Source: Prorocentrum cordatum
Taxonomy: Eukaryota
DNA: 47,758 bases
Assembly (NCBI GenBank): GCA_963575745.1
Contig: CAUYUJ010000137.1
Coordinates: 620,001 to 667,758, forward strand
Direction: 5' to 3'
The position numbers were made by a program, and so were the translations under genes. The notes under the pieces were generated by a model that had not been told where the DNA came from, made no database searches, and was given only the letters and a program-made list of their open reading frames with translations. This document shows positions 15,850 to 25,560 of the stretch, piece after piece; position 1 is the first letter of the stretch; each line of letters begins with the position of its first letter.

Positions 15850-15871
15850 CTTGAGCCAAAATGGCTACGGA
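15850..15871 (-). other. Perfect dinoflagellate spliced leader (DinoSL) sequence, probably a relic of retroposed mRNA
   Basis: Minus strand reads TCCGTAGCCATTTTGGCTCAAG, a 22/22 match to DCCGTAGCCATTTTGGCTCAAG. Confidence 0.92.
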
Positions 15872-16998: not shown

Positions 16999-17017
16999 AT
17001 ATACATAGATATGCATG

Positions 17018-17054
<37 letters not shown>

Positions 17055-18419
17055 GTGCATATACATACATACATACATACATACATACATACATACATAC
17101 ATACATGCATGCATGCATACATACACACATACATACATACATACATACGTACATACGTGCATACGTGCATACGTGCATACGTACATACGTACATACGTAC
17201 ATACGTACATACGTACATACGTACATACGTACATACGTACATACGTACATACATACATACATACGTACATACATACATGCGTACATACATACATACATAC
17301 ATGCATGCATGCATGCATGCATACATACATGCATGCATGCATGCATACATACAAACATACATACATACAGACAGACAGACAAACTGACAGGAATACAGAC
17401 ATACAAACATACATACATACGTACATACATACATACATACATACACATACATACATACATACATACATACATACATGCATGCATGCATGCATGCATGCAT
17501 GCATGCATACATACTGGTAGAGACGCACCGCTTGGGGCATACCCGCCTGGTAAGTAATCCAAGGGTGCGCACACAAAGCGTAGCGAAACTCCTCGCTGCC
17601 CCTGGAGCGAAAAGAGTGAACAACAGGACATGACATTTGTATTTTCCGACGGAGGCGCATCAACCTGGCGCGTATTTATCTGGTCGATTGCCCACGGGTG
17701 TGCACGCAAGGCGAAATGAAATAAACGATCGCCTCCGCGGTGAAGAGAAAGAAGCTGCACTTGCGGGGTCTCGCGCCAGAGACACAACAACCTCGCGCGC
17801 GCTTATCTGGTCGATTGCCCAAGGATGTGCGCGCAAGGTGGAGCGACCCGCTCTTAAAAGTAAAGCAAAGCATCAAATTCACTGGGCTGACCGCAGGCGG
17901 ACGTCACCTGCAAGCCAGCATTGCAGCCTGACGCGCCTTGGCGCGAACGGCACACATACTGAGGCGCCGACCAATTCCCTTTCTGAACATTCGAGCGCCA
18001 ACAATGAAACCCCGCAACCCTGTCGCAGGCACGTTGGGGCCATATGAGAGCGCTCGCTGGCGTTCGGGAAATGTTTCTGCTGTTCTCTGGGAGCGACGCC
18101 CCCCTGCCGCGCGCATCCACACAAAACCGCGCCCTCTGCACTTTGCTCCACGGCTCCACGGCGCCCTGAGCCAGAGACCGCCTCAAAACGGCCGCAAGAC
18201 TCCCCAAGCCCGTCCAAAGACGGCCCAGCGGACTCTGTTGGCCCTCTCTTGAAATCCCGTTGGGGTTTCTTGGGACCTTCTTGGGCGGACTCCAGAACCT
18301 CTGGGGCCGTTTTGGGGGTCCTGTTGGGCCGTCCTCGAGCCCTAGGAAGGGGGGGGAGGAGGGGCCAGGCGGAGCGAAACAAACGATTGTCTCCGCAGCA
18401 AGCAGATAGAATCCGAGGT
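15972..18419 (+). repeat. Duplicated segment, copy B (resumes at 24355-24494 after the copia insertion)
   Basis: Near-identical to copy A; includes the microsatellite at about 16965-17514. Confidence 0.9.
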
Positions 18420-18563
18420 TGTTAAGCTTTATGCGAGGTGGGGCCTGATCCTTTTCACCTCAGCCCTGGGCGAACTCGATCACAAAATGGCTTCGGCCAA
18501 CCATACAAACGTGCATGCATGCAATACTCATTATCCTCGCTCGAAACCCCTCGAATATCTGCA
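18420..18563 (-). repeat. 3' LTR (144 bp)
   Basis: 141/144 identical to 24206-24349. Confidence 0.97.
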
Positions 18564-18572
18564 CGCCCCCTG
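18564..18572 (-). promoter_or_regulatory. Polypurine tract
   Basis: Minus strand CAGGGGGCG immediately before the 3' LTR. Confidence 0.6.
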
Positions 18573-18764
18573 AGGGCGATGTCGGAGGCTCAACGAGGCG
18601 GCTGATCAGACCGCTCAACGAGGAAACAGTGCACCAAATCAAAGAAAACCTGGTCCTGCGAACCGCAGGCAAAACATGCTGCTGCGGTGTCGCTCAAGCC
18701 CTTCCGCTGGGGTCCTCTCGACTCTCCAGCGGGATACCGCATCAAATCACTCTACTCACTCACT

Positions 18765-20642
18765 TCACTCACCGCACTCAGGCCAGGCCCCCTGAGCTCT
18801 CTCTCCCAGTGGTGAAAACCTCGAACTCTCCCGATGCCAGGAGTACGTCACCTGGCTCTGGGTCGAGACGGTCCTGTACTCGACCTTCAGCTTCTTGGTC
18901 TTGATGGCCCTCTGGTTGAGCTCTACTTTCTCTTTCTCCTGCCTGCTCTCGCTCGTGCAACTCGGCCTCATGAAATAGCCGATGCACCAGCCCGCACAGC
19001 CACCGACTGCGCATGCAACGATCATGATAGTGATCATGACCATGATGAGCATCATGCCCTGGAGGTGCACGCCAGTCTCTTGACGGGTGTCCTGCAGGGC
19101 GATCTCCTTCCTGTCCTTCTCGTAGCCGTAGACGTCGCACTCACCGTCCGCTCTCACCGAGCCCAGGCTGTCCAGGAGAGCGATCAGGGCCGCGCCGACC
19201 CCCGCCATCTTGGACGTTGTGTCGCTCACGATGTTGACCCGAACAGCCGTGCTCTCCTCCACGTCATCCGCGCCAGCCAACGGCCGTCGTCCCAGCTGTG
19301 CTCTCAGCCAGTGGAACCTCTGACTCGTCAGCGCCTTGGTACCCACGTCGGCCAGGTTGGTCTCCCCAGCGTGCTTGTTCACCACCAGCTTCTTGTCTCG
19401 CACCTTGGCTTGGAGCCACAGGGTGCGGACATCAAGGTGGCGGATCCTTCCCACTCCAACGCGGTGGCAGACCGCCTTGCCCGCAGAGGAGTCTACGCGG
19501 ATCCTGATCTTCACGTCCATGTCCAGGAAACCCATCGCACTCTGGAGGTGGATTGCCTCGGCGGCTGCTGTCACCGATGCGTGATACTCGGCTTCTCCTG
19601 AGCTCAGCGCTCGGGTACATTGACCGCGCGAGTACTCGAGAAGCGTGCAGCCACCGCGGCGCAACACCCCACAAGAAATACTATTTCTGTCGATGGTGTC
19701 TCCAGCCCAATCTGAATCAGTGTAGCACTCCAAAATCTCTGTCTCTCCAGCTCTGGGAAAGAACAGTGCGTAGTCTCGAACTCCTAGTAGGTACCTGCCG
19801 AGATGCTTGAGCCTCTTCATGTCGTTGTCGGTGGGCGTGGCCAACCTCTTGCTCAGCACGTGGACAGCGAACGTGACCTCCGTGTCATAGTTGACCATGT
19901 ACCTTGCGATGCCCACGCACTGCCTGTAGAGACTGGTCTCCTCGGCGTCCAGCGGATGCTCGAAGTCCTCCTGCAGTAGCTTCGTCACAACTGGCGTGGG
20001 CGAGCTCTTCGCCTTGTCGAGGTTCAGCAGTTCCACGATCTTGCCCGCGTACTTCCTGTTGCCCGTCAAGAACATGCCGTCCTCGACTCTCACTCGCCCT
20101 CCTTTCAGATGCTGGTCCTTCGCGCCTACCCTGAGTAGCTTCCTCACCTTGATATTGACCTTGCTGCTGAGCTCCGTCGTGAACGCTTGGAGGTTGCTGT
20201 CATCAGCTGTCGCGTAGATGTCATCCTGATGAAGCTCCAGGTCCACTGAATCCCGCTCTCGGCGGTAGAAGCATGGCTGATCAGGACATTGTTCAAACTC
20301 CATCTCTGAGACGAGGGTGCGGTTCATGAAGTCACTGAAGCCCCTGCTCGCGTCCCTCTCGCCATAGAGCTTCTTCTTCATCCTCCACGTCGTCCTCGTA
20401 GTATTGCCCTTTATCGCCTCGGCCCCGATCCACTCCCGAGGCGGCACCACCACCACGAGCCTGTCTTGTTCAGCGTGGAAGTAGGCATTGACAGCGTCGA
20501 TGATGACGGTGGGCTGGTCTCGCTTCACCGCCTTGAAGTCAATGAGCCTGCCAGTCGTGGGTTCGCTGGCCGGCGCGAATAGCCCCTCACGCTCGGGGTC
20601 CATGCTCTTGAACTCCCTGGCAACGAAGCGACAGCGAATCTC
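18765..20642 (-). pseudogene. pol: Copia Pol C-terminal part: reverse transcriptase, RNase H and a hydrophobic tail; separated from upstream Pol by an in-frame TAA
   Basis: RCRFVAREF, IDAVNAYFHA, KKLYG and LHQDD (RT); YTDSDWAG, SSGEAEY, VDSSAG, RIRHLD and NLADVGTK (Ty1/copia RNase H). Confidence 0.93.
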
Positions 20643-23205
20643 TTAACCATTCTCCTGGTACACCCACTTGGTTGACAACCTTGTCCACGTGGAATCTATC
20701 TCATCAGGCGACACCGCCTCAAACACTCCAAACTCCTGCATCGTATTGATCTCCTTGCACTTGCCTGCCTTGATGAGTTCCACGTCATACTCTCCCTCGT
20801 GCCAGTCGATGTCCATCTCTGGATCCATGACGGGCATCGGGTCGATCTCGTCCATCACGAAGCCGTCGACGCCTCCGACGGTGCCCATCTCAACCTCTGG
20901 GACCTCCGGCTCCCCAGTGGGCTGGGCAGGACGTGATGACGAGCTTCCGCCTGCGTCTTGCCTCGGTGTGGGGAGCGCCACGTCGTCCATGTAGCCACTG
21001 CCTGTCCTACTCCTGGCACTCGCATAGCTGTTCCAGTCCTCGGCAACTCCTCTCTCCACCGTGGGGTCTGGAACTCCCTTCTCCTCCTTGGTATCGTCGA
21101 CCTCAGTCTCCCCTTGCTTCTTCTCAGGTGGGGCAGTCGGGAGAATGACCACCCTCGTGCCTTTCGGCCTTCCAATCTGGCCAATGCCTCGGTCCCAGGG
21201 GACCCCAACTACCTTGGCCACGAGCTCTAGGTCGCATTGGTCCTCCTCTGGGAGCCTGCGCACAGTCCTGACCAAGTGCACCCCGCTGCTCGTACCCATG
21301 AGGAACTCGTCGCTCTCGTAGGTCTTGCCCAGAAAGACGCCCTTCTCCCACATCGGCTTGGACTTGCGACTGCGTCTGCCTCCTGTCATGTGGCCACTCG
21401 ACGACATCGGATGCTTGAACATGGCGGCCTCTGCGAACTTCAGGACGACGACATGGTATTTGGTGCCAGTAGCATCTTGATGAGGAGTCCGTCCGTTTGA
21501 CTTGATGTGGAACATCTCCGTGATGAAGCCTACGTGTCTAACAAGCCACGGCCACAGAACATGACCTGGCCCTATCTTGATGCCCAGCATCTTCTCTGTT
21601 GCAGCTCGGATGGTTCTGGTCTGGCCCTGCAAGATCTTCTGCTGCGCCCCCACAGCTCCGAGCGACTGCGATGAGTACCTGGGGGTCTGCTCCACTGTGA
21701 CCTTGTAGCCATCGAACTTGAGTCTCTTGGCCGCCACCGCATTTGCTATGCTGACAATGCTCGGCTCTCCGTCACTCCTGAGCCTGAGCTGAGTGGCGCC
21801 CAGCCTCCTGAGAAAACTCACGATCGAGGTCACAGTGTAGTCGTGGTTGCCTCCCTTCTCTGGGAGGCTGAGCTGTAGAGGAACACCCGTGTCGCAGTCG
21901 ATGACGGCCAGCGTGGTGGAGAAGCGGTTGGCCGCGTCCTCGGTCTCCTCGCCATCGTCCTTCAAGAAATGGTAGTCGATCTGCACGACGGGCACCTCTG
22001 GCTCCTTGTCCGTAAGAAACTGAACTCCCCGATGGGGTGCGGCATCTCCCTTTCCGAACACGCACTCCAGGCACCAGGGCAGGAACTTCGCGTGAGTAAG
22101 CTCGTGCTGCCGTACGGTCTCCGCGTCAGGCCTCCCTGGGATCTTCAGTGTCCTCGGTACTTCGGGATCGACGCCTTCTTGGAGTCGCCGTTGACGCTCC
22201 TCGAGGGCCTCCTTGGCCTTCATCTTCTCATCTAGCTGGTGCTCGCACTTGACGAGCCTCTCCCACAGCTGCTTCTTGGTGCCGTAGATGGCCGCATCGA
22301 TAATCCCAAGCCTCCTGAGCTCCTTCAGGCGAGCTCTCAATGCCTCGACTGACGACTGGGAGCCCAGGATCTCTCGTGGCTGTCCTGCTTGTGGTGGTGG
22401 TACAGGTACGGCTTGAGGTTCTGGCGGTGCAGGTGCAGCTTGAGGTTCTGGTGGTGCAGATGCAACTTGAGGTTCTGGCGGTGGTCCTGGCGCTGGCTCT
22501 TGCTCATGAGCCGCTTGATCGATCACAGGTGCCACTCGATGCCTGCGAGCACCCGCCTCCAGCACCCGACACCTCGCGTAGAAGCTCTTCCCGATCATTG
22601 TCAGGTGTATCTTCCTCTGGACGCCGTTCACGCTCGGCGGGGCCATGTAGCTGTTCCCCGTCTCCAAGTGAATGACTGCCCCCCTCATGACTCTGATGCC
22701 ACAGCTGAGCACGGGCTTGCTGAAGTCGCCGATGCGAAATCGGTTCGTGGCCATCACCTCGTGGCCAGTCTCGTCCAGAAACGCGATGCCGACGTTCCGC
22801 TCGCCGTAGTCCTGGATCTCGTCGTTGGTGGCCGTCCTCAGCTCCACCTCGGTGGGATCCTCGACGTCGTCGCTCGAGTGACCAAAACCGAGGGGGCACC
22901 CGTCAGCGTCCGACCCGCTATCAATCGAGACCCACACGTACTTGCTGTCGTCGTTGATGGTGTTCACGCTCTCGGCGACACCCATGACCCACAGCTCGTC
23001 CTGCTCGTTGACTATCCTCTTGACCTCAGCATTCTCTGGCTTCGACCTGCACTCTGAAGCTTTGTGGCCCATCTTCCCGCACTTGTCGCACTTGATGTGT
23101 GACCTGCAATCCTTGGCCTCATGACCTGGCTTCCCGCACTTGTCGCACTTCTTCTTCTCTTTACCTCCTTTTCCGCCTTTCGCGTCCTTGCCCTTGCCTT
23201 TGTCT
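20643..23205 (-). pseudogene. pol: Copia polyprotein middle part: two CCHC knuckles, aspartic protease, integrase
   Basis: CDKCGKPGHEAKDC and CDKCGKMGHKASEC; IDSGS protease motif near 22915; HELTH..WCLEC zinc domain; VQIDY and RSDGEP catalytic Asp motifs. Confidence 0.92.
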
Positions 23206-24166
23206 GGTTGGCTGCTCCACCTCCTGGGGCCCAGCAATCCCTTGACCAATGGCCTCGTTTGCCGCAGTTCTTGCAGGTGTCGCGATCTGAGTCCCGACCC
23301 TTGCCAGCGTCCTTCCTCGACTGCTTGCCGTGCCCCTTCGGTGGCTTGAAGACGCCGCCAACGTCTCCATTCCCGTTCACCATGCCGACGCCCATGGGCA
23401 TGGGTCCGTCGCACTGGATGCCGCGGGGTGCTCCCGTGGTCTCGTAGACCTTGCCACTGGCGATGTAGTCCGTGACGACCTTGGCCAGCTTGTTGTAGTC
23501 CTGGCCGATCGCCCCCAGGGCTTGGCGGACCACGGCCTTCACGTCCTCTGGAGCCCATCTGGCCACGACAGCAATCCTCGCACCTTCCGTGACTCTCTCC
23601 AGGGACTGGGCCTCGTAGAGCGAGACACTCTTCTCCCACTCCTTCCAGGCAGCTTCCCACGTGCGGATGCCGCCTCTGATGGCCGTCTCCCACTCTGGCT
23701 TGAGCACTCCCATCAGCATCGCCGTCAGTCTCCCGCCCGACTTCGGTTCGTACTCGTCCTTGAGCCTCTTCCAACCTATGGCACCGTTGTTCTTTGGCGC
23801 CATCTGGAGGATCGTGAGGGCCTTGCCTCTCGCCGTAGCGATCAGCAAGTGATACAGCACCTTCATCCACAGTTGGACTCTCTCCGTTTGAGTTGCCCAG
23901 CCTAGCTCCGTCTCGTCTGCGTTCTCGCAGTGAGTCATGACCTGCTCTAGGTCGACGAGCCCTGCCGTTGACTCGAACGCGAAACACCACTGCCTCCATT
24001 CTTCATCTGCGCCTGAGAAGACTCCTATCCTGCTCAGGATCTTCGCGTCAACAATGCTCTCAAGCCGTCGGTCCTCAGCCTGAGATTCTGGTCTCTCGGT
24101 CAGCCTCTGGATTCGGGCCGCCTGCTCTCCAACAATCCGCTGCAGCTCTTGCAACGCTGCCTCCAT
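23205..24166 (-). pseudogene. gag: Copia Gag (ATG at 24166), frameshifted into the downstream ORF
   Basis: MEAALQEL start about 40 nt after the 5' LTR; NGAIGWKRLKDEYEP copia-gag-like motif; PMGVG; CKNCGKRGHWSRDC knuckle. Confidence 0.88.
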
Positions 24167-24190
24167 CGCGCAGCTCTGGCTGCGTCTGAA

Positions 24191-24205
24191 CACGCTCCGC
24201 TACCA
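24191..24205 (-). promoter_or_regulatory. Primer-binding site, likely initiator tRNA-Met
   Basis: TGGTAGCGGAGCGTG directly after the 5' LTR; complement ends CTCCGCT-A-CCA, implying the A1:U72 initiator signature. Confidence 0.8.
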
Positions 24206-24349
24206 TGTTAAGCTTTATGCTAGGTGGGGCCTGATCCTTTTCACCTCAGGCCTGGGCGAACTCGATCACAAAATGGCTTCGGCCAAACATACAAACGTGC
24301 ATGCATGCAATACTCATTATCCTCGCTCGAAACCCCTCGAATATCTGCA
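24206..24349 (-). repeat. 5' LTR (144 bp)
   Basis: TGCAGATA...GCTTAACA on minus, followed by the PBS. Confidence 0.97.
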
Positions 24350-24894
24350 GAGGTTGGGAAAGAGATCGACGTGAACAAGAGACCCCCCGCCAAGAAGTCG
24401 TTTTCGGTTTCGTGTCGCGCGCGCGGGCGAGGCGAGGCTGCTTCGGCGGGCGAGGGGGGCGATCCCGCCGTGCTCAGGCAAAACCGAACAAAATCCCACC
24501 AGCCCTTTGGGCGTGAGTGGTTTAGAGAGCTCTCTCTGTCCTCAACCCCCCTTCTTCCCCTTCGGGGGGGGTTTACCCCTCCCCCTACCCCCTCCCCCTG
24601 GGCCTGGACAGGGAGTCCGGGGCGTAGTCAGGGGGGGTCTTTTTTGACTCCTGGGAGGGCCAAAAAACGACTACTCTCACGAGGATTCTGGCCCCGTCGG
24701 GGGGATACAGTTTGGCCCCTCTGCTCTTCTTGGAAGCCAAAATCATTGGTGTGACTAGGGTTTTGGCCCCATTTTGGCCTCCTGAAGGGGGCCGCGCTTC
24801 TCTTCCCTCATAGCAAAAACATTGATATTAGGAAGGTTTTGGCCTCATTTTGCCCTTCTCAGGGGGCAGCTCTCCCTTGCGCTTCTGCGGAGGT

Positions 24895-25155
24895 CGCAAG
24901 AGGCCCCAAGATGGCCCCAAGAGGCCCCCAGGAGGCTCCCAAGAGGCCCCCAAGAGGCCCCCCAGAGGCCCCCAAGCGGCCCCAAGGGGCCCCCAAGAGG
25001 CCCCCAAGAGGCCCCACGAGGCCCCAAGATGCCCCCAAGAGGCCCCCAAGAGGCCCCCAAGAGGCCCACGACGCCCCAAGAGGCCCCCAAGAGGCCCCCA
25101 AGAGGCCCCCACGAGGCCCCACGAGGCTCCAAGAGGCCCCCAAGAGGCCCCACGA
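24895..25155. repeat. (CCCCAAGAGG)-type minisatellite
   Basis: Directly visible ~11-bp units. Confidence 0.85.
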
Positions 25156-25560
25156 GGAGCCCGAACGACTCACATCAGGACGAGGGGCCCGAACGACTCA
25201 CACCACGAGAGCCCGAACGACTCACACCACAAGGAGGGGCCCGAACGACTCACACCAGGACGAGGCGCCCGAACGACTCACACCACGAGGAGCCCGAAGG
25301 ACTCGCACCACGACGCGGGCCCCGAACGACTCACACCACGAGGAGCCCGAACGAGTCACACCAGGAGGAGGGGCCCGAACGACTCACACCAGGATGAGGG
25401 GCCCGAACAACTCACACCACGAGAAGCCCGAACGACTCACACCAGGACGAAGAGCCCGAACGACTCACACCACGAAGAGCCCGAACGACTCACACCAGGA
25501 AGAAGGGCCCGAACGACTCCGACCAGGACGAGAAACCCCAAACGACTCAAACCACGAGGA
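25155..25560. repeat. Minisatellite, about 15 units with a CCCGAACGACTCACACCA core
   Basis: Units alternate at about 25 and 28 bp. Confidence 0.9.

Follow-up and report, generated by a model that had tools for sequence, protein, structure and literature searches.

Sequence resembling the host spliced leader at the presumed start of R in the LTRs of dinoflagellate copia retrotransposons

The two LTRs of a Ty1/copia element lying in the window (the whole stretch of 47,758 nucleotides of Prorocentrum cordatum DNA that was analysed, to which coordinates refer unless a locus is named) carry near their middle a short segment that is almost certainly derived from the dinoflagellate spliced leader (DinoSL). 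Comparison with distant copia loci points to an architecture common to many dinoflagellate-type copia lineages, in which the PPT would be followed by U3, by a copy of the leader whose last 11 nt (TTTGGCTCAAG) are near-invariant, by a further 21-67 nt and by the PBS. The 23-mer of the window would be a diverged instance of that leader copy, located where U3 meets R in a short LTR of the Ty1/copia type. That such LTR retrotransposons have an R starting with sequence of the host leader is partly supported.

The element and the leader-like motif of its LTRs

The element is a genuine copia insertion of fairly recent date, and it has been mobile recently. Its features are the following:

18420-24349, minus strand: Ty1/copia element, with an LTR pair, TG..CA ends, target-site duplication, PBS and PPT
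24206-24349, minus strand: 5' LTR, 144 nt, TG...CA, member of a direct repeat pair of 98% identity
18420-18563, minus strand: 3' LTR, 144 nt, differing from the 5' LTR only at LTR positions 63, 100 and 129
24261-24287, minus strand: segment of very probable leader derivation in the 5' LTR, the extended 27-mer TTTGGCCGAAGCCATTTTGTGATCGAG (LTR positions 63-89)
18475-18501, minus strand: the corresponding segment of the 3' LTR, with G instead of T at LTR position 63
24194-24205, minus strand: PBS TGGTAGCGGAGC, adjoining the 5' LTR; exact and single match in the window
18564-18572, minus strand: PPT CAGGGGGCG, adjoining the 3' LTR; a homologous invariant G-run is present in related families
18765-24193, minus strand: gag-pol coding region, from open reading frames and Pfam matches to RVT_2 and zf-CCHC
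18451-18455, minus strand: AAAAG, candidate polyadenylation site and putative end of R (LTR positions 109-113, 20-24 nt past the motif)
24350-24354, no strand assigned: target-site duplication GAGGT (plus-strand letters) on the 5' LTR side, 5 bp, read from the sequence
18415-18419, no strand assigned: target-site duplication GAGGT (plus-strand letters) on the 3' LTR side, 5 bp, read from the sequence

In the sense of the element the LTRs start with TGCAG and end with TTAACA. The 12-mer of the PBS is also found after the LTR in related loci, and from its likeness to the PBS of plant copia elements it is probably of the initiator-methionine type; ARAGORN found no tRNA genes in the window. The translation of gag-pol contains zinc knuckles, a protease-like DSG, an HHCC-like motif, RVT_2 and an RNase H-like DSDWAGD. 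The RVT_2 match (E 5.1e-10) is above its Pfam cut-off; for the integrase there was no Pfam match at E 0.01 or better, the HHCC-like motif upstream of the reverse transcriptase being visible in the translation only. In this copy gag-pol is no longer intact, for the frame changes close to 23200 and the reverse transcriptase is interrupted by an in-frame TAA (20643-20645); one contig of the X1 run has an extra A behind 23202. Contigs of X1, X2 and X4, which are DNA runs from two of the three studies, join 18414 directly to 24350, and the 5935 nt missing from them correspond to the element plus one GAGGT. Because this empty site stands in the contigs of the three runs, the insertion is polymorphic among samples. 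On the element itself lie 563 X1 contigs with identities ranging from at least 99% down to below 90%, and the element therefore belongs to a multi-copy family.

The earlier note had described in both 144-nt LTRs a DinoSL-like motif matching 19 of the 22 leader positions with one inserted base, and the motif was recovered in the same places. It reads GCCGAAGCCATTTTGTGATCGAG on the minus strand, at 24261-24283 and 18475-18497 (LTR positions 67-89 in both copies), and is found nowhere else in the window at up to three mismatches. Its strand is that of gag-pol, and the PBS stands 55 nt downstream of it. The edit distance to the 21-nt DinoSL core is 4, made up of three substitutions and one inserted T. 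Shuffling the window 1000 times with its dinucleotides preserved (47.76 Mb in total) gave 56 matches at an edit distance no greater than 4. This rate of 1.2e-6 per base corresponds to 1.7e-4 matches expected for each strand of a 144-nt LTR, which bears out the claim that the match is better than chance. When the limit was set at 5, both strands of the real window gave only the two LTR copies and a perfect DinoSL at 15850-15870. The LTR motif is followed by TTCGCC, the GT splice donor of the SL RNA gene being absent at this place. Among the differences listed for contigs of four DNA runs aligned to the window, no variant falls inside the motif.

The leader block in distant copia loci

Relatives were gathered with the RT/RNase H protein of the window element and then aligned, those that bear a name being dinoflagellates (Amphidinium, Prorocentrum). 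The collection comprised 80 loci from metagenome contigs (DNA or RNA assemblies, 418,282 nt), with pol set to the plus strand and about 30% identical to that of the window. Most of these contigs run in the order pol-LTR-gag, which reflects copies that are collapsed or in tandem and not one insertion. An exact match to the final 10 nt of DinoSL, TTGGCTCAAG, is present in the 80 loci 34 times in sense (in 33 loci) and never in antisense, with about 0.4 occurrences expected per strand; the 21-mer, at an edit distance of 5 or less, gave 31 sense matches against 4 in antisense. With at most one mismatch the block stands within 1.6 kb of pol in 25 of the 35 loci that have at least 1 kb of sequence downstream of pol, and is missing from the other 10. 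In 19 loci it precedes a PBS-like 12-mer, mostly the same as the PBS of the window element, by 21-67 nt, a range that includes the 55 nt of the window. Scanning of the 150 nt upstream of PBS anchors gave a leader-like match at an edit distance of 5 or less for 12 of 41 anchors, compared with 20 of 2000 windows drawn at random from these loci and with none of the 111 PBS 14-mers in viral contigs. The positional conservation of an SL-like motif across copia LTR families, a test of which had been put forward beforehand from the window alone, is thus strongly supported, both in the strand bias of 34 to 0 and in the fixed short distance to the PBS.

The loci that bear the motif fall in at least 12 deep lineages of a quick RT tree. 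The window element is placed on a long branch together with L002, L009 and L010, the contigs of which do not reach far enough downstream to be of use. One two-LTR element, L005, has the block in both of its LTRs; the LTR pairs of L049 and L058 have no clear leader copy. Prokaryote genome bins, when searched for the pattern of block, 20-50 nt and PBS, gave 4 matches against about 2 expected; the four stand in an LTR-PBS-gag context, two of them with a copia RT downstream, and in L195 the leader is kept at 21 of 22 positions. These four loci (L192-L195), with their copia LTR-PBS-gag order and leader block, are on contigs filed as bacterial bins, one of them 2.87 Mb long, which suggests that the bins contain eukaryotic sequence. 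In viral contigs a protein-guided scan gave no relative, and neither the 23-mer of LTR end and PBS nor the pattern of block and PBS had a match.

Seventeen non-identical instances bear the motif without a PBS of the initiator type. A second class of loci, in which the block stands between pol and gag but neither a PBS of that type nor a following A-run is present, is seen in L019, L020, L024, L026, L030, L031, L033, L043, L044, L046, L051 and L061. Its members have a second CTCAAG-like word 7-10 nt past the block, as in TTTGGCTCAAGACTCTCAAG, which is perhaps an older and shorter relic. Head-to-tail diverged copies, 86-90% identical and with a single LTR between them, were observed in L040 (232-1050 and 6155-6979) and L033 (1-1259 and 8835-10093). 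Tandem copia arrays, or chimeric assemblies, are frequent among the metagenome contigs, and several others close on themselves with identical ends of 123-141 nt.

When seven diverged families were aligned, with LTRs of about 150 nt that are similar in length to those of the window, the only invariant sequences between pol and gag were the PPT, TTGGCTCAAG and the PBS. Over 37 non-identical instances, counted without gaps from the terminal AG, leader positions 12-22 were matched in 73-100% of cases and positions 1-11 in 11-57%, positions 13-22 having been the criterion by which the instances were selected. The upstream half of the leader nevertheless scored better than its own shuffles (mean 1.49 against -0.10, a value reached by none of 5000 resamples), and near-complete leader copies are present in L011, L018, L027, L047 and L195. 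On these two grounds the alignments indicate that the whole leader was once copied, and that its last 11 nt are maintained while the remainder decays. In several near-complete copies (L011, L013, L195) the internal TAG of the leader reads TCG and the internal AG acceptor is lost, which may reflect either selection against splicing within the copy or a variant of the leader.

Two pairs of close relatives, L020/L031 with L026 and L033 with L043, differ by an exchange of U3. Identity is 99.6-99.8% through pol and the first ~50 nt past the PPT, the following 120-143 nt are unrelated, and in both cases identity returns exactly at TTTGGCTCAAG and stays at 95.5-97.9% from there onward. The exchanged blocks are:

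L020, 4416-4545, against L026, 7756-7875: swapped U3 block
L033, 5013-5155, against L043, 4583-4694: swapped U3 block

The U3 block of L043 consists of about 2.5 tandem repeats. In both swaps the unrelated stretch stops exactly where the block starts on its 5' side, so that this edge appears to behave as the U3/R border, and the two independent events agree with the earlier supposition that the motif lies where R would start. No promoter-like word is shared upstream of the motif, the most frequent 5-mers being present in at most 8 of 18 sequences, which come from related families. The dinoflagellate polyadenylation-site motif is given in PMC2488372 as A(3-6) followed by G/C. Such an A-run starts no more than 12 nt past the block in 13 of the 19 loci of the PBS class, compared with a background of 12% (binomial P 1.5e-8, a value that ignores relatedness among the loci), and in 2 of the 17 instances of the second class.

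A possible part of the leader in replication and its alternatives

The copy in the window departs from this pattern. It keeps 14 of leader positions 1-15, its 3' part is non-canonical in both LTRs, and the block that is exact elsewhere is matched at 9 of 11 positions in one register or, in the alternative register, at 5 of 7 with one base inserted. LTR positions 63-89 can be read as a tandem of DinoSL 12-22 and a relic DinoSL 8-22 with 5 edits over 26 positions, a fit that none of 20,000 LTR shuffles reached. The support that this reading adds to that of a single leader consists of the four bases TTTG (P ~0.005 by composition), in place of which the 3' LTR has GTTG. A search for the same tandem of leader and relic in the 80 loci, at 8 edits or fewer, gave 76 sense and 44 antisense matches and was too noisy to use. 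The new piece of the tandem would also begin at leader position 12, and the junction would be the signature of two rounds of trans-splicing and recopying in the ancestry of the element. Since the two LTRs share two plus three departures from the canonical leader, the last template RNA carried the encoded version and no fresh leader. Recopying from a canonical leader was therefore inactive at the last transposition of this copy, and what its family now has at the presumed start of R is a relic passed on by inheritance, or a mimic.

First-strand transfer in LTR elements depends on the RNA 5' end, the very part that trans-splicing exchanges on nuclear RNAs; the literature searched does not address how the two coexist in dinoflagellates. 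A leader copy fixed at the U3/R border and conserved like the PPT and the PBS would be a simple answer to this conflict. The RNA of the element would be trans-spliced at the AG that ends the leader copy encoded in the 5' LTR, or at the internal AG of the leader, and its 5' end would be the host leader. The minus-strand strong-stop DNA would hence end in the complement of the leader, and would land on the encoded leader copy of the 3' LTR, near the polyadenylation site, the leader acting as the start of an R of presumptive extent. In LTR replication, as established for retroviruses, both new LTRs receive an R that is copied off the RNA's 5' end. Each cycle on a spliced RNA would then recopy at least the last 11 nt from the host leader, and the 5' half and U3 would drift. 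The exact identity of the block across lineages whose proteins are ~30-50% identical would arise because the host leader rewrites the block in each cycle.

Taken in its general form, in which the leader forms the start of R and reverse transcription tolerates or uses trans-splicing, this reading is slightly favoured by the comparison of sequences. The particular form in which dinoflagellate copia elements use the host leader as their R repeat, with trans-splicing providing the 5' R, the encoded copy near the polyadenylation site providing the 3' R and the last 11 nt recopied in every cycle, is offered tentatively and must be considered somewhat doubtful. Against the mechanism stand the sharp limit at leader position 12, as standard strand transfer should refresh all 22 nt; the U3 swaps, which do not look like the product of a simple intermolecular first jump; the window copy, non-canonical exactly where other families keep the block exact; and both the 10 of 35 loci without block and the 17 instances that lack an initiator-type PBS. 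In Polarella about 70% of the full-length cDNAs with a leader begin at its position 2 or 8, according to PMC7245778, so that in vitro, at least, the leader is commonly copied incompletely.

The resemblance to DinoSL is short and many sequences were scanned, but chance is hardly credible as its source, given the number of matches expected per LTR strand from the shuffles and the recurrence of the same position and orientation in many independent lineages. A different possibility is an encoded mimic without trans-splicing, in which transcription would start at or near the motif, the RNA would be natively leader-like, with a gain in translation, export or stability, and R would be encoded in the genome. 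The window copy suits a mimic, as the preservation of leader positions 1-15 and the same non-canonical 3' half in both LTRs fit an inherited encoded 5' end. A precedent exists in a +ssRNA virus of Symbiodinium, since a transcript with DinoSL at its 5' end was interpreted as molecular mimicry (Levin et al. 2017, cited by PMC9651163 and PMC10235124). The other families, however, have a degenerate cap-proximal half and an exact 3' 11 nt, which is the reverse of what a 5'-end mimic predicts, the conserved block stops precisely at the AG of the leader, and the junction of leader 12-22 and relic 8-22 in the window would require past trans-splicing at the internal AG of the relic; a mimic is thus regarded as unlikely. 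The earlier note had proposed that the RNA either looks pre-spliced or keeps SL homology after trans-splicing. The former suits the window copy better, for which the latter is disfavoured by the non-canonical 3' half common to its LTRs, and the latter suits better the families with a canonical block.

The leader may also have been brought into the LTR when a trans-spliced RNA of the element was once reverse-transcribed, and have hitch-hiked since then without a role. Relic leaders are common in dinoflagellate genomes, as stated in PMC7245778, the window copy has 4-5 departures from the canonical leader and a broken coding region, and with only three differences between its LTRs, none of them in the motif, it has no power to show constraint. 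Neutral decay would nevertheless be expected of a passive relic, yet a block of 10 nt is as invariant as the PPT and the PBS across families whose LTRs are otherwise unalignable, and neither the complete strand bias nor the fixed distance to the PBS agrees with it, so that this explanation has a small probability, below that given to the mimic. As a further alternative, the 3' half of the leader could act as the intragenic promoter of SL RNA genes and have been borrowed by the LTRs to drive or position transcription. Nematode SL RNA genes have an intragenic promoter. The conservation of the 3' 11 nt alone, with a variable 11 nt upstream, would fit a factor-binding site downstream of the start site, and the TTTT motif in DinoSL has been noted as a TATA substitute in PMC9651163. 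A co-opted promoter is nonetheless quite improbable: both U3 swaps have their breakpoint at the block's 5' edge and not ~11 nt upstream, where R would then start, the tandem junction of leader and relic in the window is left unexplained, and the motif of the LTR is followed by TT instead of the GT donor of the SL RNA gene.

If the use of the host leader as the start of R were confirmed, retrotransposition would be coupled to trans-splicing, and the element could do without its own start site when it lies within a long transcription unit of the host. The same R would be present on every host mRNA, with a built-in homology for switching of the reverse transcriptase between element RNA and host mRNAs, and such switching by a shared R would provide a concrete mechanism for the leader-tagged retrogenes of dinoflagellate genomes.

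Relation to known systems and neighbouring features

The closest known phenomenon is the relic DinoSL of mRNA recycling, which is likewise a genome-encoded copy of the leader, in sense and upstream of a coding region, and originates by reverse transcription of trans-spliced RNA. The junction in the window can be read as a leader followed by a relic that starts at position 8, which would be the known signature of trans-splicing at the internal AG of the relic followed by reverse transcription. The copia copy differs in that it is present in each of the two LTRs of an element of autonomous type, where its distance to the PBS is fixed, and in that its block is conserved over deep lineages like a replication signal, whereas a retrogene relic occupies the 5' end of one retrocopy and decays. 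Searches for retrogenes by their upstream relic leader will also catch copia elements. SLACS, CZAR and CRE, site-specific non-LTR elements inserted in the SL RNA genes of trypanosomatids, are also retroelements tied to the SL system, but there the SL RNA gene is the target and the leader is not part of a terminal repeat. With the R region of retroviruses and other LTR elements the block would share its position between U3 and U5 and near the PBS, and the variability of U3 ends at its 5' edge. Known R regions are the element's own sequence, set by the start of transcription, whereas the start of the copia R would be the host leader, possibly acquired via trans-splicing.

Cer1 of C. elegans is an LTR element in a host with leader trans-splicing and its RNAs meet an SL1 acceptor; for its full-length RNA to form the SL1 site has to be skipped, SL1 is carried by a subgenomic spliced RNA alone, and no leader copy in its LTR is reported in the passages of PMC3315495 consulted. 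The Symbiodinium RNA virus, as described in PMC9651163 and PMC10235124, is similarly a selfish dinoflagellate element with the host leader at the 5' end of its RNA. It differs in that the leader on its RNA is canonical and may simply be trans-spliced, whereas the copia copy is encoded in the DNA of the LTR and mostly limited to the last 11 nt. Ty1/copia elements have been named as a candidate engine of dinoflagellate retroposition, for which direct evidence was said to be lacking (PMC5585692 and PMC6050394), and the term 'RNA-dependent DNA replication' is enriched among leader-tagged retrogenes (PMC5585692). An architecture with the leader inside the LTR would yield exactly such an enrichment. 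No description of a leader copy inside an LTR was found in the open full-text literature searched, and the paper on heat-activated copia elements of Symbiodinium does not mention the leader.

A perfect 22-nt DinoSL, TCCGTAGCCATTTTGGCTCAAG, lies elsewhere in the window (15850-15871, minus strand), with GT directly after it and an ATG in good context ~45 nt downstream. Rfam gave no match on the whole window, and the fold of this locus is ordinary (z -0.78); the locus represents an SL RNA gene, an SL RNA pseudogene or else a relic of unusual integrity. The element is flanked by arrays of short-period tandem repeats (17001-17460, 24883-25189 and 25181-25557), with periods of ~8, 10-11 and 25-28 nt. 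G/C-rich repeats of the type GGCCCC(A)AG are present throughout the window and also in locus L058 (9200-9650).
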